A program made the position numbers and the translations under genes. The notes beneath the pieces were generated by a model. The model was not told the origin of the DNA, did not search any database, and saw nothing but the letters and a program-made list of their open reading frames with translations. A stretch of 64,000 nucleotides of DNA from an uncultured candidate division Zixibacteria bacterium (GTDB lineage: Bacteria; Zixibacteria; MSB-5A5; UBA10806), in contig CAWFQL010000016.1 of the NCBI GenBank assembly GCA_963817915.1, forward strand, positions 128,171 to 192,170. The letters run 5' to 3'. The stretch's first letter is position 1; every line of letters begins with the position of its first letter. Of the stretch, positions 6,669-57,723 are shown in pieces.

Positions 6669-8216
6669 ATGAAAACGGTTAACAAAATCTTGATCGCCGC
6701 GATTCTGACTATTTTTACCACAAGTCTGGTATTTGCTGGTGGCAGCGGCGACCTAAAACTCGGTTATACTTATCTTTCCGATAAGGGAAATCTGGCAATG
6801 AGCCAGCCGACATTCAATGATTATAAAGGTATCGGGCTCTCTCTTGAAAATTTCAGATATCAGTGCAGCAAGGGAACGATTTTCCGCGCGGACCTGAAAA
6901 ATATCACTCTCGACAATCGCAATCTCAATCTCGGTATCGAAAAAGCGGGCCTATGGGGCCTCAACGCCAACTTGAACAAGTATCGCAGGATTTACGATTT
7001 CGAAGGTAAGGATGCGACCAAGCGCGACCAATTTGGAAGCGATCTTTGGGTAAATCTGAATAAGAGACTGAGAATATTCGGCGGATTTTCATCGATTGGA
7101 TTGAAGGGGAAAATCGACGATTCATTCAATCTCGGCGCGGATGCTCCCCGTCAGATGGAATACAGTCAAAAGAATTACAATGTCGGCGCCAGAATTAATT
7201 GCAATGGCGGCATGTTCCAGGCCGAGTATTTGAAAATAAATTACAAAGATAAAAAGATTTCCGATAGAGACCAGGACCGTCAGAATGTAAGGCTTAACGC
7301 TCTGATGCCGGTTTTGAAGAATAATCGATTGATCGCGTCCGGCGGATTCCAATCATTCGAGACAAAATACACCGCCAGCGGCTTTAAGATCAAATCGAAT
7401 ACAGTTTGGGGCGGTGGCCTTTTGAATTTGCCGCATCATTTTTCGGTTAATTATAATTTCATCTTCAATCGCGCCGGTTCCGATAGCGATATGGTCAAGA
7501 CCGACAATATCGCCAATACGGTTTATTTGAATCATGTCTGGCCAAATCTCGCCGGTTTGACAGTCGGTTATCAGAACGATATCCGCGACGATTTCGACAA
7601 GCAATTAAAATCCAATTCATATTATTTCTCCGGATGGGTTACCAAAAACCGTTGCGAATTGAGGGCAGACTACGGCTCGCGCGCCGAAGATGTAAAGAAG
7701 GGCACGAGACTGGTCGGCAACGAAGACCGCACCCGATTCAAAGTTCAGACCAAATACCGTTATACCGATGCCACCTGGCTGGGATTGTCGTACGAGGGCA
7801 AGCAACGCAAGAATGATGATATCGGAAGCAAAGCCGACTTCAATCGCTTTGGTGCTCAATGCGCCGTAAAATTTGGCGATCTGTTTAATCTCAATGGCGG
7901 CTATTTCTACGCCACCGGAAAATATAAAAATATCGAATCCGAATTCAAATTCACAGATCATGAATTATTCGGCGATATTACATTAAAAGAATTTTGCAGA
8001 TTAACACCCGGATTCGGCGCGCTTTATTATAGAAGCAAACGCGATCTTGATATTGAGCATTTCAATCTCAGATTCAGCGGCACATACAGGCTGGTCTCTG
8101 ATTTTGAATTGGAAGCGATTTACAACGTTTACAATTTCGATGATTTTCTTGTTAGCGACAGATATTATACTTCAAACATAGTTGAAATAAACTTAATTAA
8201 GGGATTTTCATTCTAA
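6669..8216 (+). CDS. Outer-membrane beta-barrel protein, putative porin component of a porin-cytochrome conduit
   Basis: Signal peptide, alternating amphipathic beta-strand pattern, terminal ...KGFSF (C-terminal Phe). Flanked by multihaem cytochromes with short intergenic gaps (9 and 16 nt). Confidence 0.55.
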   Translation: MKTVNKILIAAILTIFTTSLVFAGGSGDLKLGYTYLSDKGNLAMSQPTFNDYKGIGLSLENFRYQCSKGTIFRADLKNITLDNRNLNLGIEKAGLWGLNANLNKYRRIYDFEGKDATKRDQFGSDLWVNLNKRLRIFGGFSSIGLKGKIDDSFNLGADAPRQMEYSQKNYNVGARINCNGGMFQAEYLKINYKDKKISDRDQDRQNVRLNALMPVLKNNRLIASGGFQSFETKYTASGFKIKSNTVWGGGLLNLPHHFSVNYNFIFNRAGSDSDMVKTDNIANTVYLNHVWPNLAGLTVGYQNDIRDDFDKQLKSNSYYFSGWVTKNRCELRADYGSRAEDVKKGTRLVGNEDRTRFKVQTKYRYTDATWLGLSYEGKQRKNDDIGSKADFNRFGAQCAVKFGDLFNLNGGYFYATGKYKNIESEFKFTDHELFGDITLKEFCRLTPGFGALYYRSKRDLDIEHFNLRFSGTYRLVSDFELEAIYNVYNFDDFLVSDRYYTSNIVEINLIKGFSF

Positions 8217-24746: not shown

Positions 24747-26042
24747 GTGAATTGGATAGATTCTTACGAGCGAAAACGGACAACCGCTGAAGTAGCTGTC
24801 AAAAAAATAAAATCAGGCGACAGGGTTTATATCCATCCCGGATGCTGTACTCCGCAGTATCTGGTTGAGGCTATGGTCGCCCGCAAAAATGAGCTCGAGA
24901 ATGTCGAGGTCTGCCATGTCCTGACTCAGGGCAAGGCGGGATATACCGATCCCGGCTGCGAGGGCCACTTCAGACATCGTTCGTTTTTTACGGGCGCGAA
25001 TGTCCGTCAGGCAATCAACGAAGGCCGGGCCGATCAGATGCATATTTTCCTGCATGAGATCGAGGATCTATTTCTCTCCGGTCAGTTGCCGATCGATGTC
25101 GCCTTGATTCAGGTTAGTCCGCCTGACGAGCATGGCTTTTGCTCATTCGGGGTTGGTATTGATATCACAATGGCGGCCGCGCAGGTCGCGAAAACAGTCA
25201 TCGCTCAGGTCAATACTGAGATGCCGCGAGTGCATGGCGATTGTTTTATTCATGTCAGTAAATTGACACATGTTGTCGAGCATAGCTCTCCCCTGCTTGA
25301 AATGCCCCAGGGGACTCCCGATGAAATCTCGATGAAAATCGGCCAATCGATCGCTGATATTATCGAGGATGGCTCTACGCTTCAGCTGGGAATCGGCGCG
25401 ATACCTGACGCTTTCCTGGTGGCCTTGCAGGATCGGCGCGATATGGGGATTCATAGCGAGATGTTTTCCGATGGCATCATACCATTGGTTGAGAGCGGCG
25501 TAATCAATAACTCGAAGAAGACGCTTCATCCGGGCAAGATCGTGGCGGCATTCACGCTCGGTACACGAAAGATTTTCGATTTCTGTCACGAGAATCCGTT
25601 TATAGAATTACACCCTTGCAAATACACCAATAATCCGTTCGTGATCGCCCAGAATGACCGCATGGTGGCGGTGAATTCGGCGTTGGGAATTGACCTCACC
25701 GGCCAGATATTCGCCGATTCATTGGGATACTCATTTTATTCTGGCTTTGGCGGGCAGGTAGATTTTATTCGCGGGGCCGCAAAATCCAAAGGCGGCAAAC
25801 CGATATTCGCATTCCCGGCCACCGCCAAGAACGGCACGATTTCGCGTATTACACCATTCTTACTGCAGGGCACGGGTGTAACAACCACGCGTGCCGATGT
25901 TCATTGGGTGGTCACCGAATTCGGCGCAGTGAATCTACATGGCCGGGCTGTCGGCGAACGAGCCAAATTGCTTATCAGTATCGCCGCGCCTCAATTCCGC
26001 GAGGAGCTCGAACGATTTGCCAAAGAACATAAGTATTTTTAG
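24747..26042 (+). CDS. Acetyl-CoA hydrolase/transferase family protein (4-hydroxybutyrate CoA-transferase-like)
   Basis: GTG start. Conserved N- and C-terminal CoA-transferase family III halves. 431 aa. Confidence 0.8.
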   Translation: MNWIDSYERKRTTAEVAVKKIKSGDRVYIHPGCCTPQYLVEAMVARKNELENVEVCHVLTQGKAGYTDPGCEGHFRHRSFFTGANVRQAINEGRADQMHIFLHEIEDLFLSGQLPIDVALIQVSPPDEHGFCSFGVGIDITMAAAQVAKTVIAQVNTEMPRVHGDCFIHVSKLTHVVEHSSPLLEMPQGTPDEISMKIGQSIADIIEDGSTLQLGIGAIPDAFLVALQDRRDMGIHSEMFSDGIIPLVESGVINNSKKTLHPGKIVAAFTLGTRKIFDFCHENPFIELHPCKYTNNPFVIAQNDRMVAVNSALGIDLTGQIFADSLGYSFYSGFGGQVDFIRGAAKSKGGKPIFAFPATAKNGTISRITPFLLQGTGVTTTRADVHWVVTEFGAVNLHGRAVGERAKLLISIAAPQFREELERFAKEHKYF

Positions 26043-26065
26043 ATAATTATTATAATCCGAAAATA

Positions 26066-26275
26066 TAACCGGTGCTGCCGGGTCCCCCGACCCCTACAGA
26101 AAACACCCGAAGTAGGTCGGGTTTCTCATCCGGCAGCTGCCGGATGAGAAACCCGACAACATATTTTGTAGGTCATTTCCCCTGGGAAATGACATCTTGC
26201 ATGTCAGGTCGCAGGCGACCGGACCTACGGCTATTTGTGTCGTATGAGGGCATCCGACACCACTCATTGTTATGA
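26066..26275. repeat. Composite palindromic intergenic repeat (REP/MITE-like), copy 1
   Basis: Perfect 20+20 hairpin gtcgggtttctcatccggcagc/tgccggatgagaaacccgac. Shared modules gtaggtcatttcccctgggaaatgacatc, caggtcgcaggcgacc, gagggcatccgac. Confidence 0.65.
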
Positions 26276-26277
26276 AG

Positions 26278-26961
26278 TTAATCCTTATTGCCTTTAGGCC
26301 CATTTCTTCTGAATCGAATTACAAATGCCGAAAGCCCTGCTCCAAACAAGAGCAACGTGGACGGTTCAGGGACTGGACCCGGAATAGGATCGATAGGGAG
26401 ACCATTGTCATCGACAGCCTGCACGCCATCAACTCTAACCACCATGTCTTCATAATCCCAATCACCATATGCCCAATCTTCCCAAGCCAGAATATACGAA
26501 TTGGGAACATACTGCCCATTTACTTCCGTGCGATATACATAAAGGTGATCAGCTCCATCGCGATTTAGCGCTCGTTCTGAATACCAATGCTCATCCATCT
26601 CTGGTCTTTCCTGCCCGTTGTAGTTTGTCCATATATTAAATCCGAAAACTCCGTCAAGGTCAGGTAGGTAAGCTGATGGTTGAAGTCCAGTAAGGATTCC
26701 TCCAATTAACCAATTTTCCATGCTTGTGCCGTCATACCACCCAAAGGCTGTGCCTCTGCTAAGTGAACTATATTGGTTTATGATAGTTGCATTACTCTGA
26801 TTAATTTGAAAAAACAATTCACCACTCATAATATCGTTGTTGGCATTAATTGAATATCCGAGTGCATTCATAACAATCTGCAATGATCCCAAGTTCTGAC
26901 AGAGAGATATTTCACTTATTGGACCTAAAACAATCAAAAACGTTATGAACATTTTCTTCAT
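26278..26961 (-). CDS. PEP-CTERM sorting-domain secreted protein with a DUF4114-like motif
   Basis: Signal peptide. C-terminal VPEPSTLLLFGAGLSAFVIRFRR (PEP motif, TM helix, basic tail). DWDYEDMVVRV just upstream. Confidence 0.7.
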   Translation of the reverse strand: MKKMFITFLIVLGPISEISLCQNLGSLQIVMNALGYSINANNDIMSGELFFQINQSNATIINQYSSLSRGTAFGWYDGTSMENWLIGGILTGLQPSAYLPDLDGVFGFNIWTNYNGQERPEMDEHWYSERALNRDGADHLYVYRTEVNGQYVPNSYILAWEDWAYGDWDYEDMVVRVDGVQAVDDNGLPIDPIPGPVPEPSTLLLFGAGLSAFVIRFRRNGPKGNKD

Positions 26962-27269
26962 AATTCATCCTTTGTGAATTTTAATTATTTCTTATCAAGA
27001 ATAATATTAATCACTCATTTATATCTTTATAAAAGCCTTCGCCATCGAATCCAAGCATTGATTTAAGCTATTTTCCAGGATTTTGCACACTAATTATTGC
27101 CTTACCCAATACGTTTAGGATTTAAGTTATCCCCAAAAGAATATCCCGACTAGACAAGATTGAAAACAATAGCTTGCAAATTTATATAACTTTTTATATT
27201 ATAAAAGTCAAGGGCAAAACTAACTTTTTCAGCGCGCCACGGGCAACACTTTCCTTACTGCATCACCGT

Positions 27270-27460
27270 AGAATTTGCGCGTGCTGCCGGATCCCCCGAC
27301 CCGACAGAAAACTCCAGACGTAGGGCAGGAGTCGAAGACTCCTGCCAAACTTGCATAGATTTGTAGGTCATTTCCCGTGGGAAATGACGTCTTGATTCCT
27401 CGTCAGGTCGCAGGCGACCTGACCTACTGCTGCTTGTGTCGGAATGAGGGCATTTGACTG
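27270..27460. repeat. Composite palindromic intergenic repeat, copy 2
   Basis: Same 5' end as copy 1 (gtgctgccgg.tcccccgaccc). Modules gtaggtcatttcccgtgggaaatgacgtc and gtcaggtcgcaggcgacctgacctac. Ends ...aatgagggcatttgac. Confidence 0.65.
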
Positions 27461-27741
27461 GGCGGCAGGCATCCTTGACTGCCCCAATAGAATCCGAATC
27501 GAAGGGGCAGCTGTGGACAGCTGCCACCCAATGTGTAAAGGATGTCATGATACACCGTGTTACCCATGTCCCGGTACACTCGCGCGCCGACCCGAACCGC
27601 AAAATATTTATTGACGTCCATGATAAAATGATTATCTTGAGATTAATTGTTGGATGTGAAGTGATTTTTCCATGATAGGTCGAATTGTCGTCAGTAAAAA
27701 ATTACCGGCTACGCTCAAATAACGAATCAAGGAGCTCGATA

Positions 27742-29043
27742 ATGCGCAACAAATCAAACAAAATCATCTTATCAGCTTTGGCGATATGTATTTTGCTTTT
27801 GGTCTTCTCATGCTCAAAGGACGAGCCAACCGATCCCAATATGCCGGGGCCACCAAGCTTGACAACCGCTGCCGTCAGTGCAATTACACAATCTACGGCA
27901 GAATGCGGCGGCACTATTACTTCCGATGGCCGTAGAACTGTAACCTCACGGGGAGTCTGCTGGAGTACAAACCCGACACCGACAATAGCTGATAGCCTTA
28001 CAATTGACGGCGCGGGCGTAGGAAGTTTTGTTAGTTCCATCGCCGGTTTGTCTGCCAATACTCTTTATTACGTCAGGGCCTATGCTACCAATGAAATTGG
28101 CACCAGCTATGGCGACTCTATATCGTTTTCGACTTTGTCTTCTGCGCCGGTGCCTGTATTAAGTACGGCCGAAGTCACGGGAGTAACGCACGCGGCAGCC
28201 CAGTGCGGCGGGAATATTACATCGGATGGCGGGGCAACCGTAACCGCTCGCGGCGTATGCTGGAGTACAAATCTGACACCTACTGTGGCCGATAGCAAAA
28301 CTACTGATGGTACCGGAGCAGGCAGTTTTACCAGTTCCATAACAGGATTGACAGACAGCACTGCTTATTATGTCAGGGCTTATGCCACTAATAGCAACGG
28401 CACTGGTTATGGCAATACTTCATCATTCACAACGACTGATTCAATGGGAACAGTAACGGATATAGACGGCAATATTTATCAAACGGTAAAGATAGGTAAT
28501 CAATGGTGGATGGCAGAGAATCTGAAAGTAACTCATTACCGCAATGGCGATGCCATACCCAATGTAACCGACAATACCGCATGGGAAGGTCTTACTACAG
28601 GAGCATATTGCAACTATAATAACGATACTGCCCAATGTTGCTATTTATGGCAGACTGTATAACTGGTATGCCGTAAATGACAGCCGCAATATAGCGCCAG
28701 CAGGCTGGCATGTGCCGAGTGATGCTGAGTGGCAGACATTAGTTGATTATCTTGGCGGCAATGCAGTTGCAGGCGGGAAGATGAAAGAAACGGAACCACA
28801 CATTGGAGCAGCCCCAATACTGGAGCCACCAACGAAAGCGGTTTTTCCGCGTTGCCCGGCGGCTACCGTAGCAGCAATGGGACTTATGTACGATATGGGT
28901 AACTACGCCTACTTTTGGTCTTCTACGGAGAACGATAGTAACGACGCATGGTACCGTAGTCTGAGTTACATAATTCAGAAGTCTTCCGGCATAACACTAC
29001 AACTATGCAAGACGGTTTCTCGGTTCGTTGTGTTAAGGATTAA
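27742..29043 (+). pseudogene. Decayed lipoprotein gene: two fibronectin-III-like repeats plus a Fibrobacter succinogenes major paralogous (FISUMP) domain, at least 4 frameshifts
   Basis: Lipobox LLVFSC. Tandem ~90-aa repeats (CGG.ITSDGG.TVT.RGVCWST...YYVRAYATN). The FISUMP motifs are scattered over frames 1 and 2: IGNQWWMAENL (f1), LYNWYAV..PSDAEWQTLVDYLGG..AGGKMKE (f2), GTTHWSSPNTGATNESGFSALPGGYR (f1), AYFWSSTE..AWYR (f2), GFSVRCVKD-stop (f1). Confidence 0.6.
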
Positions 29044-29312
29044 TTTGGTACCGTTCTACCACCTGACTTGAAAAAAGCGGGAGTAAATTTTGTCGGATAA
29101 GAGCAACCGACACCGCAAGAAACACTATTTCGTTTTGCTATGATTGCATTATGCAGCTATTTTAAAGTATTATCAACGGTTTTATTTTAATGTCTAATAA
29201 TGTATTACAACATTTCTTGACAGTTCTGGAAATGTTTCCTATAATCATGGAGTATCGGCATGCATTTGAGTGAAGCAATCATTAATTTAATTAATTTGAG
29301 GAGGTGATAAAA

Positions 29313-29501: not shown

Positions 29502-29734
29502 GTTTGGCAATTTAAAATATTATCTAATGCCCGAATTTAGTAGACAACGCTCCTAAAATCTACGATTCACCTATTCCTCATAAAATAACGGACTTAACCT
29601 GATTGGTGATTATCGTAATATTTATTAGGTCGGGCTCTTTTTTTGCGTGCTGTTTGTTCCCCGGCCTGTCAAAAAATGCGGGCTAAATTTTATCGGATGA
29701 GGGCATCCGACTTCACGAGTAATTAATTACTTAA

Positions 29735-30316: not shown

Positions 30317-32363
30317 TTAACGACAGATTCGAATGTTACTTCCGTCTGCTTGCGGCTTGGTTTTGGCGTGCGGTTTTACATACTGCCCGCGCGGCTGGGG
30401 TTTGTAGACATCATTCCAGTAGTTGAATCGTTCCACTTCGAGCATTTCTTCGGGTATATCCTGCAAAAATTCCGACGGCCCGCCGGTGAAATCGCCCCAG
30501 CGCCGCCTGAATCCCGCCATCGCCATGTAAAGCTTATTCTTGGCGCGCGTGATACCGACATAGCAGAGCCGCCGTTCCTCTTCCATATCGCCCGGCTCGC
30601 CGTAATTCCGTCTCAATGGAAACAGGCCATCCTCCATTCCGGCCATGAAGACCGAATCGAATTCCAGCCCCTTGGCCGAATGAAGCGTCATCAATGTCAC
30701 CGCCTGAGCCTCGCTATCCAATGTATCGATATCGCTGATCAGCGCCACCTCTTCGAGGAACCCCGCCAACGTCGGCGCTTCGGTCCGTTCGCAATACTCC
30801 TCGATACCCGACACCAATTCGCGCACGTTGTCGGCTCGAACATCGGCCTCGGGCGTGGCCTCTTCTTCGAGCATTCGCAAATATTTGATATCCTCGATTA
30901 TGCGCGCGGCGATATCATGCGGTTCCAGAGCTCTCCAATTTCTCCGAGAGATTATTCATAATGCCGATAAATTTCTGTATCTCCAATTTCGCCTTGCCGC
31001 CGATCTCAAGCTCATTCATCGATTTCAACAAAACCTGCATCAACGGCATTCCCTGCTTGGCCGCGTGGCTTTCGAGTTTTTCGATACTGGTCTTGCCGAT
31101 GCCCCGTTTGGGCATATTGATTATTCTCAATAGCGCGATATCATCGGCGGGATTGATCAGCAGGCGCAAATAGGCGAGAATATCCTTAACCTCGGCTCGT
31201 TCATAAAATCTGATACCGCCGACAATCTTGTAAGGGAGCCCCTTGTAACGAAGCGAATCCTCGATCACACGCGACTGGGCGTTGGTGCGATACAAAATCG
31301 CGAAATCCGACGGCGACTTATCGTATGTAATGCCAAGTCTGATTTTTTCGGCAATCGCCTCGCCCTCGTTGACCTCGTCCCCGCATAGGAGCAATGTTAT
31401 CTTATCGCCGCCCTTTTTCTCGGTGAAGAGTTTCTTGGCTTTTCGTCCGAGATTTTTCGAGACCACTTCGCCCGCGGCGTCCAATATGATCTGTGTCGAA
31501 CGGTAATTCTGTTCGAGCTTGATCTCCTTGCATTCGGGATAATCCTTCTCGAAATCGAGAATATTGCTGATATCCGCCCCGCGCCAGGCGTAGATCGATT
31601 GATCATCATCGCCGACAACACAGAGATTATGGCTGGCCGACGCCAGTAATTTCACCAAACGATACTGGCAATGATTGGTATCTTGATACTCATCTACCAT
31701 CAAATATTTAAAGCGATCATGAAATATCTTCAAAATATCCGGCCGTTTTTCGAAAAGTTCGACCGTCTTCATCAAGAGGTCATCGAAATCCATGGCCTGA
31801 TTTTTGGCCAAGCGTTTTTGATACTCATCATAAATTTTCGCCACATTTTCTTCGAGAAAATCCGACGCGGCCGAAGCATATTCCGATGGCGTCAATAATT
31901 TGTCTTTGGCCTTTGATATTTTGGATTTGGCCGCCCCGAACGTCGGCTGAGTATCCGATAGCCCCTTATCCTTGTAAATCCGCTTGAGCAACGCCAGCGA
32001 TTCGGATTCATCATATATGGAGAAGCTCTTGATATACCCCAGCGCCGCACCATGGTCCCGCAATGTCCTCGCGCAAAATGAGTGGAATGTCGAAACCCAG
32101 ACCTTGCCGCCATCCGGCCCCATGATATCGATCACCCGTTGCTTCATCTCGCCCGCGGCTTTGTTGGTGAATGTCACCGCCAATATCTGCCACGGCTTGG
32201 CCGTCCCGGTCGCGATTAGATGCGCGATACGATGAGTGATGACTCGTGTTTTGCCAGAACCGGCTCCAGCAAGTATCAGCAACGGGCCATCGAGTTGCTC
32301 TACGGCCTGCCTTTGACGATCATTCAGCCCATCGAGATGCTTGTACTTTTCCATCGCCGCCAA
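30317..32363 (-). CDS. UvrD/PcrA-type ATP-dependent DNA helicase, split by a frameshift around 30915-30935
   Basis: Walker A AGAGSGKTRV, motifs Ia through VI across the 482-aa ORF. The 187-aa downstream ORF carries the TLMTLHSAKGLEF and YVGITRA motifs. In a third frame IAARIIEDIKYLRML reads through the junction. Confidence 0.75.
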
Positions 32364-32403: not shown

Positions 32404-32620
32404 TTTGCGTGTCAAAGCTTGCTTTGACCGCAAGATATTGCCGCGATTATCGTGTCGTGGGGTCCGCGCACCCACGATTAGGCAAATTTTGTAGGGGTTT
32501 GATTTATCAAACCCTAATACTTGTCATTCCGCACTCGATGCGGAATCTATCATGCTTTTCAGTTATGCGTCAGGATGGAATAAAATTTATTTGCGTGTCA
32601 AAGCTTGCTTTGACCGCAAT
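32404..32620. repeat. Repeat block: two 30-bp direct repeats (tttgcgtgtcaaagcttgctttgaccgcaa), each holding the 18-bp perfect palindrome gtcaaagcttgctttgac, flanking three hairpins
   Basis: Direct repeats at 32404-32433 and 32591-32620. Internal hairpins ttgtaggggtttgatttatcaaaccctaa and gtcattccgcactcgatgcggaatc. Confidence 0.55.
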
Positions 32621-32692
32621 ATGCTGTTGCGGTCGCAGTAAACTGCGACGCGCATGAGAACACAATTTAATATTTGACATATGAAATGTTAA

Positions 32693-37933: not shown

Positions 37934-37944
37934 ATTTAGTAGCT

Positions 37945-38952
37945 TTGTGGGCGGAGAAACCTTCTCCGCCCACAAATAGTTTTACTGCAATGTCACACAA
38001 TTACGGATTTAAACCCAAATCAAAAATCAAAGAATTTCTTGGCGAAAAATTAATCGCCATTACAGCATTTTCAGCGCTGATAGCCATCTCATTGATTTTC
38101 ATATTTATATTCAAGGAGGCTCTTCCTATTTTAACTGATAAGAAAGTTCAGGAAGAGGCCAGCCTCGATAAAATGGTATTTAAACAACAATATTATGAAA
38201 ACCAGGATGCCAAATGGTCCTGGCAGCCGAATTCAGACATACCCAAATATTCTCTATTCCCGTTATTCCTTGGCACTTTAAAGGCGGCGTTGGTGGCAAT
38301 GCTTTTTGCGGCCCCGTTAGGAGTTGGAGCGGCTATATATTCATCGGAATTTGCGGGCAAACGTCTCCGCGAAATAATTAAGCCAACAATCGAGCTTTTA
38401 GCCAGCATTCCATCGGTCGTACTTGGATTCTTTGCCCTGATAGTACTGGCAAGCGCCCTGCAAAGTATCTTTGGATTCACATACAGGCTTAACGCTATCA
38501 ATGCTGGCATAGCCCTGGGGATCGCCATCATTCCGATTATTTTTACGATTTCAGAGGATGCCATGACGGCGGTGCCGCAGTCATTGAGAGATGCCGCACT
38601 GGCCTTAGGAGCCAATAAATGGCAGGTATCGTTTACGATGGTCCTCCCAGCCGCGTTACCGGGAATCGCGGCAGGCATCGTGCTTGGGTTTGGACGCGCA
38701 ATTGGCGAGACAATGATTGTTTTGATGGCCTCTGGCAACGCGGCCATTATTTCAGCGAGTTTTGTACAGCCGATTCGCACTTTGTCCGCGACAATCGCCG
38801 CCGAACTCGCCGAAGTGGTATTCAATAGCGCTCATTATAATGTTTTATTCTTTATAGGCACCATCCTGTTCGTATTTACATTCTTAATTAATCTCGGCGG
38901 AGAAATGGTCCTTTCGAGACTTAAGATTAGGCTTCAGGGTAAGTTGAAATGA
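37945..38952 (+). CDS. pstC: Phosphate ABC transporter permease PstC
   Basis: BPD transport domain with the EAA-like motif. Likely true start at about 37990. Confidence 0.75.
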   Translation: MWAEKPSPPTNSFTAMSHNYGFKPKSKIKEFLGEKLIAITAFSALIAISLIFIFIFKEALPILTDKKVQEEASLDKMVFKQQYYENQDAKWSWQPNSDIPKYSLFPLFLGTLKAALVAMLFAAPLGVGAAIYSSEFAGKRLREIIKPTIELLASIPSVVLGFFALIVLASALQSIFGFTYRLNAINAGIALGIAIIPIIFTISEDAMTAVPQSLRDAALALGANKWQVSFTMVLPAALPGIAAGIVLGFGRAIGETMIVLMASGNAAIISASFVQPIRTLSATIAAELAEVVFNSAHYNVLFFIGTILFVFTFLINLGGEMVLSRLKIRLQGKLK

Positions 38953-49170: not shown

Positions 49171-51131
49171 TCAGCTTTCCTCGTACTCGTCCTTCAATGA
49201 TTTGACGACATTCGGATCGGCCAGTGTCGTGATATTTCCCAGAATTCTACCTTCGGCGATATCTCTTAACAATCTTCGCATGATTTTCCCCGAACGAGTC
49301 TTAGGTAAATCTCCCGCGAATATGATTCTCTCCGGCGTGGCAAATTTGCCGATTTTCTTAGCGACCCATTGGATAAGCTCTTTTTCCAAGAATGGATCCG
49401 CCTGATTGCCATCACGAAGACTCACGAAAGCCACCAACCCCTGCCCTTTTACCTCATGTTTGACACCGATTACAGCGGCTTCGGAAACGGCCTTATGTTC
49501 GACAAAAACACTTTCCAGCTCCGCCGTACCGATTCTATGACCGGATACATTAACGACATCATCGACCCGTCCCAAAATCCAGTAATAGCCGTCATCATCT
49601 TTTCGGGCGCCATCGCCGGGGAAATATATGCCGGGCCATTTAGACCAATAAGTTTGTTTGAATCGTTCGGGATCGCCATAGATACCGCGAGTAATTCCTG
49701 GCCATGGCTTTTTAATCGCCAGCAATCCGGCATTCGTTGGTTTCCCCTCTTCGGTAAGCACGTCGGCATCGATACCGAAAAATGGAAGAGTAGCGCTGCC
49801 GGGCTTAGTTGTAATGCATCCGGGCAATGGCGTAATTACAATCCCGCCAGTTTCGGTCTGCCAGTAAGTATCGACAATCGGGCAATTTTCATGGCCGATA
49901 TTTTCATGATACCACATCCAGGCTTCGGGATTGATCGGCTCACCGACCGTGCCTAAAAGTCTAAGCGATGATAAGTTGTATTTGTTCGGCCAGCTCTCTC
50001 CCCAACGCATGAAAGTTCTGATCGCGGTCGGGGCGGTGTAGAGTATTGTTATGCCATATCGTTCTATCATCTGCCAGAAACGGCCTCGATCCGGCCAATC
50101 AGCCGCGCCTTCATACATCACCACAGTAGAGCCATTGGCCAGGGGCCCATAGACTACATAACTGTGACCAGTGACCCATCCGATATCGGCAGTACACCAG
50201 AAGACATCCTCCGGCCTGAGATCGAAAACATATTTCGAGGTGGCATAAGTATAGACCATATAGCCGCCGGTCGTATGAATTATCCCCTTGGGCTTGCCGG
50301 TCGTGCCGCTGGTATAGAGCAGGAAAGAGCATATCTTCGCTGTCTATCTCTTCGGCGGGGCATTCCATCGACGCGTTATCCATGACTCTATGATACCAAT
50401 GATCTCTACCCTCGACAATCTTGCACGGGAAATTCGCCGCTTCCGAACGTTTTATCACAATGACATCTTTGACAGTCGGGCTGGTTTCGAGAGCCTCATC
50501 GACAATATTCTTCAATGGCATTATATTGCCGCGGCGCCAGGAGCCATCGGCGGTAATTACCAGTCTGGCCTGACAATCATTGACCCGGTCGCTGATTGAT
50601 TCCGATGAAAACCCGGCGAATATCACCGAATGAATCGCGCCAATTCGGGCACAAGCCAGCATGCTGATTGCCAATTCGGGAATCATGGGCAGATAAATTG
50701 CGATCCTATCGCCTTTTTTTACGCCGAGCGATTTTAAAACATTGGCGAATTTATTTACTTCGCGGGCCAGATCCCAATATGTGAGTACTCTACGATCACC
50801 CGGCTCGCCTTCCCAGATAATCGCGGCCTTATTGCGAATATGGCTATCGAGATGACGATCGAGGCAGTTATAGCAAAGATTGGTTTTGCCATTTTCAAAC
50901 CATTTGAAGAACGGAGCATCGTCGGAATTCAGGGTTTTATCCCATTTTTTATACCAGATAAAGCTCCTCGGCAATCTCGGCCCAAAATGATTCAGGATTA
51001 TCAATGCTTTTGTCGTAAAGCTTTTTATATTCCTCGATACTTGAAATATGGCTTTTCTTCTTGAATATTTCCGCCGGTTCGAATTCTCGACATTCCTGCG
51101 AAATAGTCTCGAGTTTCATTGAATCTGCCAT
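49171..51131 (-). pseudogene. acs: Acetyl-CoA synthetase (AMP-forming) gene carrying at least two 1-nt frameshifts
   Basis: Three collinear ORFs cover the N-terminus (FWAEIAEEL), middle (WDKTLNSDDAPFFKWF...EDMLF) and C-terminus ([11 protein letters not shown]...[11 protein letters not shown]). At about 50322 the reading [24 protein letters not shown] is restored by removing one C. Confidence 0.75.
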
Positions 51132-51694: not shown

Positions 51695-51972
51695 GAATTA
51701 TTTATGAAGCATTTTCTAAATTTCAATTCCATCAATAGAATTATCGGAATTATTGGGGCAGGGTATAGGTAAATGTCTATTATTTTCGAATAAATTTCTA
51801 CGCGACATAGATTGTTGCGCGTCAGGGCTTGCCCTGACTGCGAACTGAGTAGGATGCGGTCACGTCAAGATCCGCCACAGGCGGATAGACTGTGACTCGC
51901 TGGAAAATAGTTCGAGCCATAGGTTACTGTTTGCAATTTTCGATTAAATTTTTGTGTGATAAAAATTCGAAG

Positions 51973-52533
51973 TTATCGTTTAAGTCGCCATTTGGCGGCA
52001 AATGAATCCGGGGTTTCGCCGCCGACAAGATATTCGGCTATTTTCAGCGCAAATTGCAGAGCGGCACCCGGGCCCATGCCGGTGATAATATTGCCATCCT
52101 GTGTTACCAGCTCATCGGTAATGATCGCTCCGCCGCGGGCGAGCTTGTCATTGAATACAGGATCGCCGGTGGCACGTTTGCCTGTTAGAATATTAGCCGC
52201 TTCGGCCAGAACATGGCCGGGGGAAGCGCATATGGCCGCCACCAATTTGCCCTCAAAATAATTTTTCTTTGTTAATTCGATTACTTTTTCGCTGAAGGCC
52301 AGATTTTCGGCGTTTTTTCGTCCGCCGGGAAATATGATAGCGTCATATTGCCCCTTGACCGAATTCAAGTCGGTATCCGGGATTATCGTAGTCCCATAGG
52401 CGCCCTTGATTGTGCCGGGGATCAGGTTGGCTATAGTCAGGTCGACCTGGACGCGATTCAAAATGTCAATTATGGCGATGCCCTCGATGTCCTCAAATCC
52501 ATCGGACAATACCAGCAGGGCTTTCTTCTTCAT
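51973..52533 (-). CDS. DJ-1/PfpI family protein
   Basis: Nucleophile elbow AAICASPG and the flavodoxin-like class I glutamine amidotransferase-type fold. Confidence 0.75.
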   Translation of the reverse strand: MKKKALLVLSDGFEDIEGIAIIDILNRVQVDLTIANLIPGTIKGAYGTTIIPDTDLNSVKGQYDAIIFPGGRKNAENLAFSEKVIELTKKNYFEGKLVAAICASPGHVLAEAANILTGKRATGDPVFNDKLARGGAIITDELVTQDGNIITGMGPGAALQFALKIAEYLVGGETPDSFAAKWRLKR

Positions 52534-52639
52534 GCTATCTCAAACGATAAATTAAGGGAAGGGGTTCCACGGGCGATTATGATTAATTTGTCGGGTTTTC
52601 TCTTGGCGCGAGCAAGATTCCGCATCAAGCTCTCTTGAG

Positions 52640-52760
52640 TCCGGCGACCGACGGATGCGGAATGACAGGTCTAAAGTAGGTCAGGTCGCCTGCGACCTGA
52701 CTATAAATTTAGGACGTCATTTCCCAGGGGAAATGACCTACAAAGATATGTTTTTTGATC
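52640..52760. repeat. Composite palindromic intergenic repeat, copy 3 (inverted relative to copies 1 and 2)
   Basis: gatgcggaatgac, gtaggtcaggtcgcctgcgacctgac and gacgtcatttcccaggggaaatgacctac. The following ~70 bp are near-identical to 54330-54400. Confidence 0.65.
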
Positions 52761-52824
52761 GGCATTGACTACTTCGATATATTTATTGTCGATTTCTTGA
52801 TAAACACGAAGGGCTGTAACATTA

Positions 52825-54235
52825 TTATTTTAGATATATAAGCTTTATGGCCTTTTCGTTCTGGGGCGTCGATGCTTTGGCAAAGTATATCCCTGTAGAT
52901 AGCCTTTTGCCGGAAGCGTCAGTGGCGTCCCATATTATTTGTCCCTCCTCCTTTGAATCGGTCCCCAATTTAGTGATCAATTGGCCATTGATGTTGTATA
53001 TCTCGATCTCACCTCCTTCAAGATTTGTATAAGTTAGAATTGTCGAGGAATTAAATGGATTGGGATAAGCACTTCAGCAGAAATATCCTCAGGCAAAGTT
53101 GGTTCGTCTATCCTCAACTTCAGAACCGCCCGAAATCGTCCCCCGGCGATAGTACAAGCATTTGTGGTTGCCCCATAAGGTATCATCTCGGGCATCGCAG
53201 TAAGCTACATGGATGTGATCTGCCGTCAATTGCGACTGCCGGCTCTACAGTTTTCCAGGGGGAATAAGTCACGCGAACCGGCTCCCCCCAAGTGACTCCT
53301 CCGTCGGGTGAGAGATTGAAAAAGACCTCTTCTGAATTCGTCTCGCCATCAAGAACGATTTCATCATAGATCATGAATAAGGAATCGTTTCTCTGCGTGA
53401 TATTCTTGCCAAATGCGAGGTGATTGAAGGTCAGTTGCTGTTCAGGGAGCCAGAATTCCCCATTATCAGTCGAGCGTCGCATCAAAATGTCCCCAGTCCA
53501 ACCATAAGGAGAATACTTATAATCCAGCCAAATGACTGCGAGATTGGAATCCCCCCAGGCCGTCATCTCGGGATTAAAGGAGTTGTCTTCAAGATAATCA
53601 GAGATACGAACCGTATCGCTCCATCCGGGCTGAGAAAAGAGATACTTGCAATAATATATCTCTTCGTTACCCCTTTCCACGATCATATGCAGAGCCGAAG
53701 GAGTCGCCCCTAAGGCCGATTCACCCTCAAGATAACGCTTTGTGGAGTGATAATACCAGCGATAGCCATGATTAATGCTGTAATAGCATTCCATATTATG
53801 TGCATACGTGTAGAAAATGGCATAAAGCGTTGAATCCATAGAGGTTACGGAAAGTTCAAAGCCTTGAATATAGGTTCTCCTCCAATCGCTCCAAGTCTGG
53901 CCAAAATCGCTTGAATATATACTTCGAAAAATGCCATTACCAATGAAAGGAAAACTGATATAATTTGAATTAGAAAATAAATAGTTAAATATCGCAGAGA
54001 CTCCAGGAGTGTCTATTAGGCAGACCTGCTCACTCCATGCATCGCCATTATTTAAACTCCTTATATAATAAGGTTCGAATGCGGAAGCATTGCTTGCAGT
54101 TGCATGGACATAGCCATTATAAGCAGAGACAGTCGGGAAAAAGGTATTGAGGCCATGCGTCAGCCTTATTTCGGGGTCCCAGTCTATAGAGAGTATCTCA
54201 TCGCGGCTATCCGGCGCTCTTGCCTGGGCCGGCAT
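52825..54235 (-). pseudogene. BNR/Asp-box repeat surface protein with T9SS C-terminal sorting domain, paralogue A. The 5' end is replaced by a palindromic repeat element and the 3' half has multiple frameshifts
   Basis: Homology to paralogue B begins exactly at PGMPAQA, directly abutting repeat copy 4, so there is no signal peptide. After VAIDG the reading frame is lost, but an intact T9SS C-terminal domain (YPNPFNSSTILTYTNLEGGEIEIYNINGQLITKLG...KLIYLK-stop) is present in a third frame. Confidence 0.65.
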
Positions 54236-54330
54236 GCCCGGGGGCGGGAAAGTAGGTCAGGTCGCCTGCGACCTGACTATAAATTTAGGACGTCATTTCC
54301 CAGGGGAAATGACCTACAAAGATATGTTTT
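54236..54330. repeat. Composite palindromic intergenic repeat, copy 4
   Basis: Near-identical to 52676-52760. Abuts the truncated 5' end of paralogue A. Confidence 0.65.
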
Positions 54331-54399
54331 TTGATCGGCATTGACTACTTCGATATATTTATTGTCGATTTATTGATAAAATAAGGCGCTGTAACATTA

Positions 54400-55945
54400 T
54401 TATTTTAGATATAGAAGTTTGATAGCCTTTTCGTTTTGGGACGCTCTTGCTCTGGCGAAATAGATGCCTGAAGAGACTTTATTTCCCATAGCATCCCGGG
54501 CGTCCCATATTATTTGTCCCTCCTCATTTGAATCGGTCCCCAATTTAGTGATCAATTGACCATTGATGTTGTAAATCTCGATCTCACCTCCTTCCAGATT
54601 AGAATAAGTGATTATTGTTGACGAATTAAATGGGTTTGGATATGCCCTAATAGAAATACCGTCAGGCTTTGTTTGTCTATCCGGCTCGACATTAGAACTG
54701 CCTGAAATTGTCCCTCTACGGTAATACAAGCATTTATGGTTGCCCCATAAGGTATCATCCCGGGCATCGCAGTAAACGACATGGGTATAGCTGCCATCAA
54801 TCGCGACTGATGGATAGACCGATCTCCAGGGGGAATGAGTCACCCTTAATGGCTCACCCCAGGTGACCCCACCATCAGGAGAGAGATTGAAAAAGACCTC
54901 TTCTGAATTTGTTTCTCCATCGAGTACAATCTCATCATAAACCATGAATAAGGAGTCGTTTCTCTGAGTGATATTCTTGCCGAAGGCCAGATGATTGAAT
55001 GTCAATTGTTGCTCGGGCAGCCAGGAATCGCCGTTATTAGTGGAGCGGCGCATGAGAATGTCGCCAGTCCAGGCATAAGGGGAATATTTATAATCGACCC
55101 AAATTACGACAAGATTGGAATCCCCCCAGGCCGTCATCTCGGGGTCAAAGGATGCGTGCGTGGGATCGTCGGAGATTCTCAAAGTATCGCTCCATCCGGG
55201 CTGTGCAAAGAGATACCTGCAATAATATATCTCTTCATTACCCGCCTCAACGACCAAGTGAAGAGCCGATGGAGTCGCTCCTAAGGCCGATTCCCCCTCA
55301 AGATAGCGCTTCGTAGAATGATGATACCAGCGGTATCCGTGGTCAGGACTATAATAGCACTCCATATTATGAACGCTGACAGATAGAACAGTATAAAATA
55401 CTGTATCCAAGCGTACAGTGGAAAATTGGTTCCCCGAAATATAGGTTCTTCTCCAGCTACTCCAGGTTTCACCAAAATCGCTCGAATAAACCGAGCGAAA
55501 AACTCCATTCCCGCTAAATGGAGCAGTAATAAAATTGGAGTCTGCAAAAATTAAAGCCCCCCCCCCTTACTCCAGGATCTACTAAACATACCTGATCGCT
55601 CCAGTTTGCGCCATTATCCGAGCTTCTAACGTAGTATGGTTCAACAGTATAATTGCTGGTGATAGCGTGCACATAACCTTCATCTGCGGCAACTGCGCTA
55701 AAAAAGGTGTTAAGGCCATACGTCAGCCTGACTTCAGGCCCCCAGTCTATGGAGAGAATTTGATTGCGATTATCGGGCTCGCTGGCCTGGGCCGGCATGC
55801 CCGGAGATGGATCGGGCAAAGTGGCATGCATATTCCGCGGTTGCCAAGAGCCATCCGGGAAGTAGCGTCCGGACCTATCAGGCGTTTGGCCAATAGCCAT
55901 AGAAAAGAGAATCATTATATTTGCTATTATTGTGATTGAGCGCAT
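54400..55945 (-). CDS. BNR/Asp-box repeat surface protein with T9SS C-terminal sorting domain, paralogue B, frameshifted at a poly-G tract
   Basis: Signal peptide MRSITIIANIMILFSMAIG. Asp-box repeats S.D.G.TW. C-terminal YPNPFNSSTIITYSNLEGGEIEIYNINGQL...SGIYFARA...LLYLK. With G9 instead of G10 at 55556-55565 the two ORFs fuse into one (about 515 aa). Confidence 0.7.
55556..55565. repeat. Homopolymeric C10 (G10 on the coding strand) tract inside paralogue B
   Basis: ccccc ccccc at 55556-55565. It encodes VRGGG, and the frameshift maps here. Confidence 0.8.
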
Positions 55946-56232
55946 AGAGTAATTCCCCTTTAAATTCCCCTTTTTCACGCTATTAAAATAAGCTGTCTTA
56001 CCATTTAAATATGCAATTTTATCCATTTTGTCAAGAATTATTTTAAGTTTATTTTGTATTTTCAGGGCTCGCGCAATCAATGTTATGTCTTTTTTTTCTA
56101 TTTAACCCATTATGATAAATCAATGGATTGATAGAGTATGATAACGTCGAGGCTATAAAACATCTAAAATATTATATTGCAATATTAGAAAGCTATTGTA
56201 TATTAATCACAGATATTTAAATCTGAATTATT

Positions 56233-57723
56233 ATGAGGCACCTCATGCGCAAGACCTTAGCCTTAATAATATTAATAATAGCCTTGACCGCCACGGCCGC
56301 CTTTGCCGGCTGGTCGGAGCCGAGGCTTGTATCTCCCCCGGGCGGGTGCGATGCCCCCCAGATATTAGCTATTCGAGATACATTACACATTGTATATGAA
56401 ACTACACGATATTATGATAAGATAGTTTATCAAAGGAGCACGGATGGGGGGCTAACCTGGAGCGCTCAACATATACTTTCGGATCGCTTATATGAAACAC
56501 TCTTCCCAAAGATAATAGCTAGAGGTGACAGACTAATGGCGCTTTGGAAGAAAGGGCTTACTGGTTATTATAGAAATACTATCGCTTTTAGTGTTTCGAC
56601 GAATAATGGAATCACCTGGTCAACCCCCGGCGTGGTTATTAATCCGGGTTGCCCTGATAATCTTTATTTTGCCGCTTCCGTGGGAAACGGATTGAATATA
56701 AATGTAGTAAATCGGACTTTCGTCGATAGCGATCTTATATTTTACAGTATTCGAAGCACTAATTTCGGGCAAACATGGACTGATCCGCAAGAAATATTCG
56801 GTTGTACTGAGGCCGGATTGCCCGATCAGACAAGTTATGGTAATAGCATACATCTTACTTGGCAAGGTCGCTTTAACTTAAATGAGCCCTGGGATATTTA
56901 TTATTGCCGAAGTACTGATGGAGGACAAACATGGTCCCCAAACACAATGCTCAGCACCATGGACAATCATGGGGCTTTAAGCCCCGCAATTTGCGTGAGC
57001 GATTCTGATAAAGTCAATGTTAGTTGGATGGATGGCAAGTACTCGCCGTATTTGGTTACCGGTGACATACTCATGCGACATAGCGGAGATTCAGGGCAGG
57101 ATTGGGAATCTGAAAATCAAGTATCGTTTAACCATTTCGCGTTGGGGGCAAGCGACATTGTCTCTGAAGGGGATACTATTAATATCGTTTGGGAAGACGC
57201 GATCATGGGGTTGGCCAATAGAAGCATTTATTATGTCAAAAGCACCGATGATGGGGCTACATGGAGCGAACCTTATTGGATAGACGGGACATTCGACGAT
57301 TCATCAAATCCAGCTCTGGCTGTATCCAATGGTAAAGTATATTGTATTTGGACTGATGGTAGGCCCATACCGGATACCAATATAATAGGCGGGGTATATA
57401 TCAGCCGTTGGGATCCTGAACCGAGCGGTATCAAAAATGTAAATAACAATAATGTTCCAGATGAGATAAATTTATCGGCCTATCCCAATCCATTCAATTC
57501 AACAACCGTTATCAATTATACGAACATGAAAGGAGGTGATATTGAGATATTCAACAGCAACGGACAGTTGGTAACGATATTGGGGATCGAATTGAGTAAT
57601 GAAGGGCAAATAAAATGGGACGCCCGGGATGCAATGGGAAATAGAGTCTCTTCAGGCATTTATTTCGCCAGAGCAAGAGCGTCCCAGCATACTCTTTCAC
57701 TTAAACTAATGTATCTGAAATAA
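56233..57723 (+). CDS. BNR/Asp-box repeat surface protein with T9SS C-terminal sorting domain, paralogue C (intact)
   Basis: Signal peptide. At least 6 Asp-box repeats (STDGGLTWS, STNNGITWS, STNFGQTWTD, STDGGQTWS, SGDSGQDW, STDDGATWS). C-terminal YPNPFNSTTVINYTNMKGGDIEIFNSNGQLV...SGIYFARA...LMYLK. Confidence 0.75.
   Translation: MRHLMRKTLALIILIIALTATAAFAGWSEPRLVSPPGGCDAPQILAIRDTLHIVYETTRYYDKIVYQRSTDGGLTWSAQHILSDRLYETLFPKIIARGDRLMALWKKGLTGYYRNTIAFSVSTNNGITWSTPGVVINPGCPDNLYFAASVGNGLNINVVNRTFVDSDLIFYSIRSTNFGQTWTDPQEIFGCTEAGLPDQTSYGNSIHLTWQGRFNLNEPWDIYYCRSTDGGQTWSPNTMLSTMDNHGALSPAICVSDSDKVNVSWMDGKYSPYLVTGDILMRHSGDSGQDWESENQVSFNHFALGASDIVSEGDTINIVWEDAIMGLANRSIYYVKSTDDGATWSEPYWIDGTFDDSSNPALAVSNGKVYCIWTDGRPIPDTNIIGGVYISRWDPEPSGIKNVNNNNVPDEINLSAYPNPFNSTTVINYTNMKGGDIEIFNSNGQLVTILGIELSNEGQIKWDARDAMGNRVSSGIYFARARASQHTLSLKLMYLK

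Follow-up and report, generated by a model that had tools for sequence, protein, structure and literature searches.

The stretch of DNA described here, 64,000 nucleotides of contig CAWFQL010000016.1 from an uncultured Zixibacteria bacterium (hereafter the window), contains short palindromic elements that are all intergenic, between genes with Pfam support. About 30 elements of all families occur in the 64 kb, including eight copies of the two best represented ones, A and B, and the zones that are richest in them (26-33 kb and 52-58 kb) are also where genes for accessory surface proteins lie. Genes for a PEP-CTERM protein, a FISUMP protein and paralogues of a BNR protein lie beside the arrays. 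The initial annotation of the window had taken the elements for a modular repeat family resembling either repetitive extragenic palindromes (REPs), with their mosaics known as bacterial interspersed mosaic elements (BIMEs), or miniature inverted-repeat transposable elements (MITEs). As argued below, their structure and their counterparts in other metagenome-assembled genomes (MAGs) indicate that they are probably REPs, of a kind accompanied in relatives by a REP-associated tyrosine transposase (RAYT).

Hairpins were counted over the 64-kb window with a perfect stem of at least 9 bp as the criterion and 20 dinucleotide-preserving shuffles as the control. Twenty such hairpins were found, whereas the shuffles averaged 2.55 and never exceeded 6, and 16 of the 20 lie within six short intergenic patches (26072-26263, 27281-27458, 32404-32653, 52616-52741, 54252-54317 and 57740-58128). 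The patch at 57740-58128, with nine hairpins, and that at 32404-32653, with six, had not been listed as copies in the initial annotation. The tetranucleotide GTAG stands immediately 5' of the stem on one strand in 12 of the 20 strong hairpins, and two more (57890-57918 and 58027-58054) are palindromes that open with GTAG and close with CTAC. The chance expectation for GTAG flanks is about 0.07 (background frequency 0.0019 per position), and every other 4-mer flanking a stem occurs at most twice among the 20 hairpins. A scan anchored on the tag, with one mismatch allowed, adds an imperfect copy of element B at 26203-26228.

The elements are perfect or near-perfect stem-loops of 20-46 nt, with stems of 9-14 bp (in one case 21 bp) and loops of 0-5 nt. 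This agrees with the short palindromes of the GTAG REPs (20-50 nt, stem of about 6-13 bp, short loop), and the 5' GTAG tag, the extragenic location and the arrangement in inverted dimers and clusters that characterise GTAG REPs were all found as well. The GC content is 0.55-0.56 in the arrays, 0.45 over the whole window and 0.32-0.36 in the intergenic DNA nearby. Three arrays that were folded as single strands are predicted to form individual small hairpins (z-scores -8.6, -3.4 and -10.7). Two open reading frames (ORFs) overlap elements (27255-27602 and 57733-58062), and neither matches a Pfam family.

At least four families can be distinguished in the window, namely GTAG-tagged REPs and K-type, J-type and I-type hairpins. 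The modules quoted in the initial annotation were found at their places when 25900-27600 and 52500-54500 were read, far beyond chance. Module A, GTAG-GTCATTTCCC-nn-GGGAAATGAC, is present at 26168, 27363, 52741 (minus strand) and 54317 (minus strand), and module B, GTAG-GTCAGGTCGC-ct-GCGACCTGAC, at 26228 (minus strand, one mismatch), 27427 (minus strand), 52676 and 54252; the two have an invariant GTCA/TGAC stem foot in common. A search with a degenerate A/B pattern matched the window at 10 places (expectation from shuffles 0.00), eight of them true copies and the other two 2-mismatch opposite-strand reads of the palindromic A stem; an unfiltered covariance model run on the window gave no A/B copies beyond these eight. 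The GTAG stems are A (GTCATTTCCC, 4 copies in the window), B (GTCAGGTCGC, 4 copies), C (the 21-bp stem at 26116, 1 copy), D (GGCAGGAGTC, 1 copy), E (GGGTTTGAT, 1 copy), F (GGGCGGGTTT, 1 copy), G (GCCCGAACC with the loop CCYGC, 2 copies) and H (AGACGCAA, 1 copy).

The J-type and J' elements are imperfect palindromes with the consensus YGTCGG(G/A)T...A(C/T)CCGACR and a CAC tail, and the "terminal gagggcat..gac" of the initial annotation is the loop and 3' arm of J'. K-type hairpins, with the consensus TTGCG(T/C)-GTCA(A/G)(A/G)GC-TT-GC(T/C)(T/C)TGAC-(C/T)GC, occur three times in the window (32411, 32597 and 51821; 0.02 expected), away from any RAYT. The third module of the initial annotation is the I-type element TGTC-ATTCCGCA, which has only two copies in the window. 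The elements are located as follows.

26072-26099: J-type imperfect palindrome GTGCTGCCGGGTC-cccc-GACCCCTACAG, left end of cluster 1; the same element stands at 27281
26112-26157, plus strand: GTAG REP C, perfect 21-bp stem without a loop
26168-26193, plus strand: GTAG REP A, GTAG-GTCATTTCCC-ct-GGGAAATGAC, left half of a heterodimer, 42.6 bits with the covariance model
26203-26228, minus strand: GTAG REP B, GTAG-GTCCGGTCGC-ct-GCGACCTGAC, one mismatch, right half of the heterodimer
26237-26263: J'-type palindrome TGTCGtATG-aggg-CATCCGACA with a CCAC tail, right end of cluster 1; includes gagggcatccgac of the initial annotation
27281-27307: J-type palindrome, left end of cluster 2
27320-27346, plus strand: GTAG REP D, GTAG-GGCAGGAGTC-gaa-GACTCCTGCC, in the slot held by C in cluster 1
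27363-27388, plus strand: GTAG REP A
27402-27427, minus strand: GTAG REP B
27436-27458: J'-type palindrome, degenerate, right end of cluster 2
29090-29116: J'-type palindrome, solitary, TGTCGGATAAGAGCAACCGACA
29691-29716: J'-type palindrome, solitary, TCGGATG-aggg-CATCCGA
32404-32433, plus strand: K-type hairpin TTGCGT-GTCAAAGC-tt-GCTTTGAC-CGCAA, of the type that brackets RAYT genes in relatives
32449-32478: J-type palindrome, degenerate
32491-32514, plus strand: GTAG REP E, GTAG-GGGTTTGAT-tt-ATCAAACCC
32522-32547, plus strand: I-type hairpin TGTC-ATTCCGCA-ctcga-TGCGGAAT, with the layout of CGTC/TGTC-tagged superfamily REPs
32590-32653, plus strand: second K-type hairpin (32590-32619), then the overlapping hairpins GACCGCAA/TTGCGGTC and GTCGCAGT-aa-ACTGCGAC
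51814-51845, plus strand: K-type hairpin GTTGCGC-GTCAGGGC-tt-GCCCTGAC-TGCGAAC
52616-52668, minus strand: I-type arms ATTCCGCA ... TGCGGAAT-GACA around a 29-nt loop
52676-52741: head-to-head heterodimer of B (52676-52701, plus strand) and A (52716-52741, minus strand) with a 14-nt spacer
52742-52804: 63-nt AT-rich tail after the first BNR dimer, near-identical to the tail of the second
54252-54317: head-to-head heterodimer of B (54252-54277, plus strand) and A (54292-54317, minus strand), at the junction of the BNR tandem duplication
54318-54380: second copy of the 63-nt tail
57740-57878: three J-type palindromes (57740-57767, 57819-57847 and 57854-57878)
57890-57918: GTAG REP F, full palindrome GTAGGGGCGGGTTT-g-AAACCCGCCCCTAC
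57945-58007: J-type palindrome (57945-57971) and GTAG REP G (57981-58007, minus strand), GTAG-GCCCGAACC-cctgc-GGTTCGGGC
58027-58054: GTAG REP H, full palindrome GTAGAGACGCAA-aatc-TTGCGTCTCTAC
58070-58128: J-type palindrome (58070-58094) and second GTAG REP G (58102-58128, minus strand)

On its opposite strand element A reads (C/T)GTC-ATTTCCC-nn-GGGAAAT-GAC (26175-26194, 27370-27389, 52715-52734 and 54291-54310), and thus matches both the GTAG-tag and the CGTC-tag format. A perfect 15-bp hairpin, TTTGTGGGCGGAGAA-acc-TTCTCCGCCCACAAA, at 37944-37976, stands outside the REP families and has no GTAG tag; it is placed at the junction of two plus-strand genes, where it overlaps the predicted start of the second.

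The recurring unit of the arrays is GTAG-[A]-spacer-[B]-CTAC, that is two different REPs in inverted orientation with GTAG outermost, and inverted REP pairs of this layout have been described as head-to-head (HH) heterodimers (Di Nocera et al. 2013, PMC3733652). Four A+B heterodimers are present, two per orientation, their spacers being 9, 13, 14 and 14 nt long, and the unit is predicted to fold into separate hairpins, with only the 7-nt outer ends GTAGGTC/GACCTAC pairing with each other. Besides such dimers, elements are found as singletons and in BIME-like mosaic clusters (26072-26263, 27281-27458, 32404-32653 and 57740-58128). Short extragenic palindromes, inverted pairs and mosaic clusters thus bear out the initial REP/BIME-like reading, but not the accompanying statement that the sequences are unrelated to known REPs, since the canonical 5' GTAG is present and A+B is an HH heterodimer.

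The first two copies of the initial annotation are homologous composites of about 190 nt, 1.2 kb apart, both with the order J - (C or D) - A(+) - B(-) - J'. Their 5' end is common at 21 of 22 positions, as had been noticed, and the spacers can be aligned; the middle GTAG hairpin has been exchanged (C vs D). The long perfect hairpin reported for copy 1 is real and slightly longer than thought, with 21+21 bp (26116-26157) instead of 20+20. Both composites have the same orientation and enclose the low-GC PEP-CTERM gene.

Such composites could be MITEs, with J and J' as terminal inverted repeats (TIRs), moved by a classical DDE transposase. Their ends are indeed imperfect inverted repeats (GTGCTGCCGGGT... 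and ...ATCCGACACCAC), and the two composites are alignable throughout save for the one swapped hairpin. However, a check of the copy boundaries found no target-site duplications or direct repeats flanking composites or dimers, including both composites in question, and no transposase gene was found in the window with Pfam on 34 of its ORFs or with tblastn and RAYT queries. The internal modules also occur independently, and J and J' are found solitary (29090 and 29691) or combined differently, as in the cluster at 57740-58128, which has five of them, and in L037 (L numbers denote fetched loci). The MITE reading was rejected because target-site duplications are absent and the units are single hairpins and not TIR-bounded elements, and we regard it as decidedly unlikely; the MITE-like label of the initial annotation falls with it.

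Copies 3 and 4 have a different history. A tandem duplication of 1.57 kb has 52673-54241 and 54249-55804 as its units, which are 77.7% identical over 1580 nt; each starts 3 nt before the GTAG of a B element and ends in the 5' part of a BNR/type IX secretion system (T9SS) gene, so that the paralogue in the left unit is missing the first ~47 codons. Where the units join stands the second dimer, beside the 5'-truncated BNR paralogue, and the coding sequence does not resume beyond it. The site is thus a duplication junction, or a deletion endpoint, at the edge of a REP, and the insertion into a coding region that had been claimed is not supported. The A+B dimer is present four times, in line with the four full copies first listed, but copies 3 and 4 are not independent, because both belong to one tandem duplication. 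The first 132 nt of each unit (52673-52804 and 54249-54380), which comprise the dimer and a 63-nt tail and are non-coding, are identical at 131 of 132 positions, whereas the remainder of the units averages about 78% identity; this suggests gene conversion, or recent joint movement of dimer and tail.

Altogether three adjacent paralogues with BNR and a type-IX-secretion tail are found at 52813-57723, one 5'-truncated, one split and one intact and inverted, and a REP array follows the 3' end of each of the three. Four genes of the window each appear as two ORFs that adjoin or overlap, namely those for acetyl-CoA synthetase (acs; 49171-51004, minus strand), UvrD helicase (30317-32363, minus strand), the FISUMP protein (27685-29071, plus strand) and BNR paralogue 2 (54400-56080, minus strand). 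Both UvrD halves match one and the same gene in locus L150. This suggests indel errors of a long-read assembly and not real decay, and since the frameshifts extend to the housekeeping genes acs and uvrD, the FISUMP gene described as decayed and the BNR "pseudogenes" may be partly artefacts. The pseudogene statements of the initial annotation are weakened accordingly.

The position of several arrays raises the possibility that the hairpins terminate transcription or, as 3' stem-loops, stabilise mRNA, being maintained by selection on the RNA and similar to each other through convergence or ordinary duplication, with no transposase involved. Four arrays (26066-26263, 52676-52741, 54252-54317 and 57740-58128) lie just downstream of convergent or co-directional genes, T-rich tracts follow two hairpins (26116-26157, and 58124-58102 on the minus strand), and roles of this kind have been assigned to REPs in published work (PMC3733652). 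Most hairpins are nevertheless without a T tract (only 2-3 of the ~30 elements have a T-rich tail after the stem), two clusters (27281-27458 and 32404-32653) are in divergent promoter regions, and in an inverted dimer one partner at most is usable per transcript. The unpaired conserved GTAG and the K copies around the RAYT gene would be left unexplained, and there are no G-U intermediates among the stem variants. We consider this explanation unlikely and rejected it for the scarcity of T tracts; a terminator role can still be compatible with REP identity as a secondary function.

A further candidate reading is that the elements serve site-specific recombination, either as integron attC sites or as attachment sequences of phage or tRNA origin, in that they are imperfect palindromes on either side of individual genes (that for PEP-CTERM, one BNR paralogue and, in L023, a small gene). 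Against this, the window contains no attC core (RYYYAAC/GTTRRRY) and no integrase, the grounds on which attC was rejected. A search of the whole window against Rfam at gathering thresholds gave 0 matches, the A/B pattern has 0 matches among IMG/VR viral contigs, and tag and geometry are those of REPs. An origin as attachment sites is therefore extremely improbable.

Counterparts of the elements were sought in other genomes by an exact-pattern scan of one genome per GTDB species. Element B with its 2-nt loop was found in MFD05942.bin.2.45 (CAWDFP01; 5 loci), RBG_16_53_22 (MEWP01; 6 loci), MAG50 (JAHLKV01; 9 loci) and GN15 Bin_052 (WJMS01; 2 loci), and variants of B in two further MAGs. Exact B copies number 5-11 per related MAG and are on different contigs. 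The REP types common to these MAGs and the window suggest a Zixibacteria-like lineage for the latter. Look-ups of window proteins gave at most short Logan contigs, only some of which end inside REP arrays, and these ends were left out of the evidence. In the Zixibacteria-type loci, 8-14 of the 11-27 strong hairpins per MAG are GTAG-tagged, the same HH heterodimers are formed with other partner stems (GTCAGGTGCC, GTCAGGCGCC, GTCAGGCGG, GTCAGGCCGC and GTCAGTTCCC), and J-type and G-type relatives stand beside the dimers. In L023 two HH heterodimers of the same orientation (7254-7322 and 7740-7804) enclose one small secreted-protein gene, an arrangement that repeats the one around the PEP-CTERM gene of the window.

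Among 15 distinct A/B-type sequences, the GTAG and the GTCA/TGAC foot are nearly invariant and the distal stem covaries. Five of the ten stem pairs are changed on both sides with pairing kept, and no G-U intermediates are seen; because sequences entered the set only with at least 9 of the 10 pairs formed, the percentage paired follows from the selection, and the information lies in the pattern of compensatory changes alone. The 10-bp stem of B is moreover abundant in MAGs of Lysobacterales/Ahniellaceae, with 3-4-nt loops and mostly in HH homodimers (e.g. L008 3003-3093 and L013 4056-4131), which may be due either to convergence or to transfer between phyla. Contrary to what had been supposed, the family is thus not lineage-specific, given that B is present in at least four other Zixibacteria-type MAGs and the same stem, with longer loops, in Lysobacterales/Ahniellaceae.

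These matches also bear on the view that the window holds local segmental duplications only, with no dispersed family and no dedicated mechanism behind them. Copies 3 and 4 do lie in the 1.57-kb tandem duplication, and copies 1 and 2, alignable over ~190 nt, are just 1.2 kb apart. The DNA flanking copies 1 and 2 is however unduplicated, eight different GTAG-tagged stems have the tag alone in common, the same B element and dimer layout recur on many contigs of at least four other MAGs, and the K copies of the window match RAYT-flanking hairpins on unrelated contigs. Segmental duplication as the sole explanation is largely refuted by the cross-genome matches and seems to us very improbable.

The association with a RAYT gene, which the initial annotation had proposed as a test, was found in relatives. 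In RBG_16_53_22 a contig breaks off within a Y1 transposase gene some 45 nt away from a B element; the complete gene is L093:116-769, where the adjoining B element is at 812-837. The encoded protein has a Pfam Y1_Tnp match, and its HUH motif and catalytic Tyr align with those of E. coli RayT. With the NCBIfam model REP_Tyr_transpos (NF047646) it scores 105.7 bits, above the cutoff of 80, whereas the IS200 model gives 29.9 bits, short of its cutoff of 55. The clade members P0002 and P0027 likewise pass the RayT model (clade scores 105.7, 83.8 and 97.6 bits) and fail that of IS200. A profile search recovered about 55 members of this RAYT clade at 40-60% identity, one of them labelled Candidatus Zixiibacteriota. 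A metagenome scan with the RAYT profile gave mostly distant Y1 transposases (25-30% identity), L098 being the only close relative.

In seven of eight lineages (L094/95, L096/97, L098, L178, L180, L181 and L182) the RAYT is bracketed by inverted K-type hairpins, the first 10-70 nt ahead of the start codon and the second at the 3' end or just beyond it; the RAYT of L179 is without K-type hairpins. The K stem covaries across lineages (GAGC, CAGC, GGGC, CGGC and GCCC), and over all 180 fetched loci (~1 Mb) the K pattern is found only at RAYT flanks. The stem GTCAGGGC-tt-GCCCTGAC of the RAYT flanks in L178 and L182 is identical to that of the window copy at 51821.

The dnaB gene is directly downstream of the RAYT in three lineages (RAYT at L093 116-769, L096 10001-10663 and L178 195-767), whose RAYT proteins are only 55-60% identical, and the RAYT of L180 (3961-4539) lies between folE and folP; other lineages have other housekeeping contexts. 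Such a location among housekeeping genes agrees with the single-copy, domesticated behaviour of RAYTs (PMC5581495). The DnaB of RBG_16_53_22 contains an intein (Hom_end/LAGLIDADG matches). Comparison of L093 (1-110) with L094/L095 (1-28) shows an identical RAYT gene and a divergence exactly at the upstream K hairpin, which is kept in L094 and L095; in L093 the sequence as far as the hairpin's 3' foot is AT-rich and unrelated. Either the hairpin was the site of a rearrangement, or the assembly is broken there.

Taken together, the structure, the tag, the clustering and the conservation with compensatory changes in other MAGs, as well as the K-flanked RAYT of relatives, make it likely, in our judgement with good confidence, that the elements are REP sequences in the strict sense, forming a GTAG REP/BIME system with a RAYT in relatives. 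We infer that the source genome encodes a RAYT of the K-flanked type, which may serve the GTAG families as well, unless a further RAYT does so. By analogy with the systems of E. coli, Stenotrophomonas and Marinomonas, the hairpins would form on transiently single-stranded DNA and would be bound by the domesticated HUH/Y1 transposase (RAYT, TnpA-REP). The enzyme would read the tag together with the stem foot and then cleave and rejoin DNA beside the hairpin, and strand transfer of this kind may spread and maintain the repeats in intergenic DNA. The hairpins might additionally act on transcripts or on DNA topology, and for arrays downstream of genes protection of transcript 3' ends and effects on DNA topology are plausible secondary roles.

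Several points weigh against this identification. The 64-kb window contains no RAYT/Y1 transposase gene detectable by tblastn with RAYT queries, and no mobility event was directly observed. The RAYT-flanking hairpins of relatives are K-type and have no GTAG, so that the putative link of the RAYT to the GTAG families, one of sequence, comes down to the GTCA/TGAC foot and the one adjacent B element in L093. Copy numbers are low compared with the hundreds in classical REP genomes, element A has no match among GTDB species representatives or JGI metagenomes in exact-pattern scans, two of the four A+B dimers derive from a single tandem duplication, and the covariation set was preselected for pairing.

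It is tempting to speculate that REP dimers and composites are also boundaries of gene-sized units that have been duplicated, deleted or moved. A RAYT, or recombination provoked by the hairpins, would then act on two REP arrays of the same orientation and carry the enclosed gene along, in a manner likened to IS200/IS605-type excision between two hairpin ends. The idea is prompted by the PEP-CTERM gene between same-orientation composites and the small gene of L023 between same-orientation dimers, by the BNR duplication junction 3 nt from a dimer GTAG with its contrast in identity (131/132 for dimer and tail vs ~78%), and by the L093/L094 divergence exactly at a K hairpin. We hold it to be a doubtful proposition.

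A full-text literature search for Zixibacteria together with REP, RAYT or REPIN found no paper. The GTAG REP hosts of the 2013 survey are Proteobacteria, Cyanobacteria, Chloroflexi and the PVC group (PMC3733652), and the present data place GTAG REPs, HH heterodimers and a RAYT REPtron in a Zixibacteria-type lineage, outside the phyla listed there, which supports the view of REP/RAYT systems as old and widespread. For the annotation of MAGs, the data suggest that intergenic GC-rich clusters of GTAG hairpins should be read as REPs and not as novel RNAs, terminators or MITEs. The K-flanked RAYT clade, together with many low-copy stems that have one foot in common, may also be usable to relate one domesticated transposase to several REP families.

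Compared with known systems, the elements are closest to the GTAG REP superfamily (Nunvar et al. 2010, PMC2817692; PMC3733652), which likewise has an unpaired 5' GTAG, a perfect stem of 9-10 bp (here up to 21 bp) and a 2-5-nt loop, is extragenic and GC-richer than its surroundings, and forms clusters and HH dimers with GTAG outward, including heterodimers of different stems, with several families per genome. The short perfect stems resemble in particular the REPs of group 3 RAYTs, such as the SMAG elements of Stenotrophomonas and those of Pseudomonas (PMC8266576). They differ from classical GTAG REPs in that many stem families, at apparently low copy number, are present in place of one or a few families with hundreds of copies, and the stems are new with respect to known GTAG REPs, save that of B, which is also present in Lysobacterales/Ahniellaceae MAGs.

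The E. coli BIMEs, mosaics of Y and Z units, similarly show alternating orientation, short and partly conserved spacers and substitution of modules (here C vs D). The organisation is only analogous, as there is no sequence relationship save GTAG; the window stems are perfect and without the bulge that E. coli TnpA-REP requires, and neither equivalents of the integration host factor (IHF) and L motifs of BIMEs nor the bulged Y/Z units and defined linkers were identified. REPINs (Bertels and Rainey 2011, PMC3116915) also have two inverted REPs and a short spacer as their recurring unit, but the A and B stems differ, which makes the long REPIN hairpin impossible and sets the dimers apart from REPINs. 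The I-type hairpin at 32522-32547 has the tag, an 8-bp AT-initial stem and a 5-nt loop, as in the CGTC/TGTC superfamily (e.g. Neisseria dRS3), whose members carry a CGTC/TGTC tag, an 8-9-bp AT-initial stem, a 4-5-nt loop and a short CCA-like tail (PMC3733652); set against this text description of the superfamily, the I-type differs in having CTA and not CCA as its tail, and in having just two copies.

As for the transposase, a single RAYT bracketed by inverted short palindromes that overlap or abut its ends is found in the relatives as in the published REPtrons and TIRtrons, the latter being RAYTs flanked by inverted repeats without GTAG (PMC3733652). The flanks in the relatives are of the K-type (GCG-GTCAnnGC-TT-GCnnTGAC-CGC) and in this are unlike the GTAG-tagged flanks of REPtrons. 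Published counterparts thus exist for the GTAG tag, the short perfect stems, HH heterodimers and hybrid dimers, clusters, the coexistence of GTAG and CGTC elements, and RAYTs flanked by REPs or inverted repeats (PMC3733652). Novelty lies in the host phylum, the particular stems, a RAYT clade flanked by K hairpins and the presence of many low-copy families in place of a single abundant one, in what is otherwise an ordinary system of this kind.

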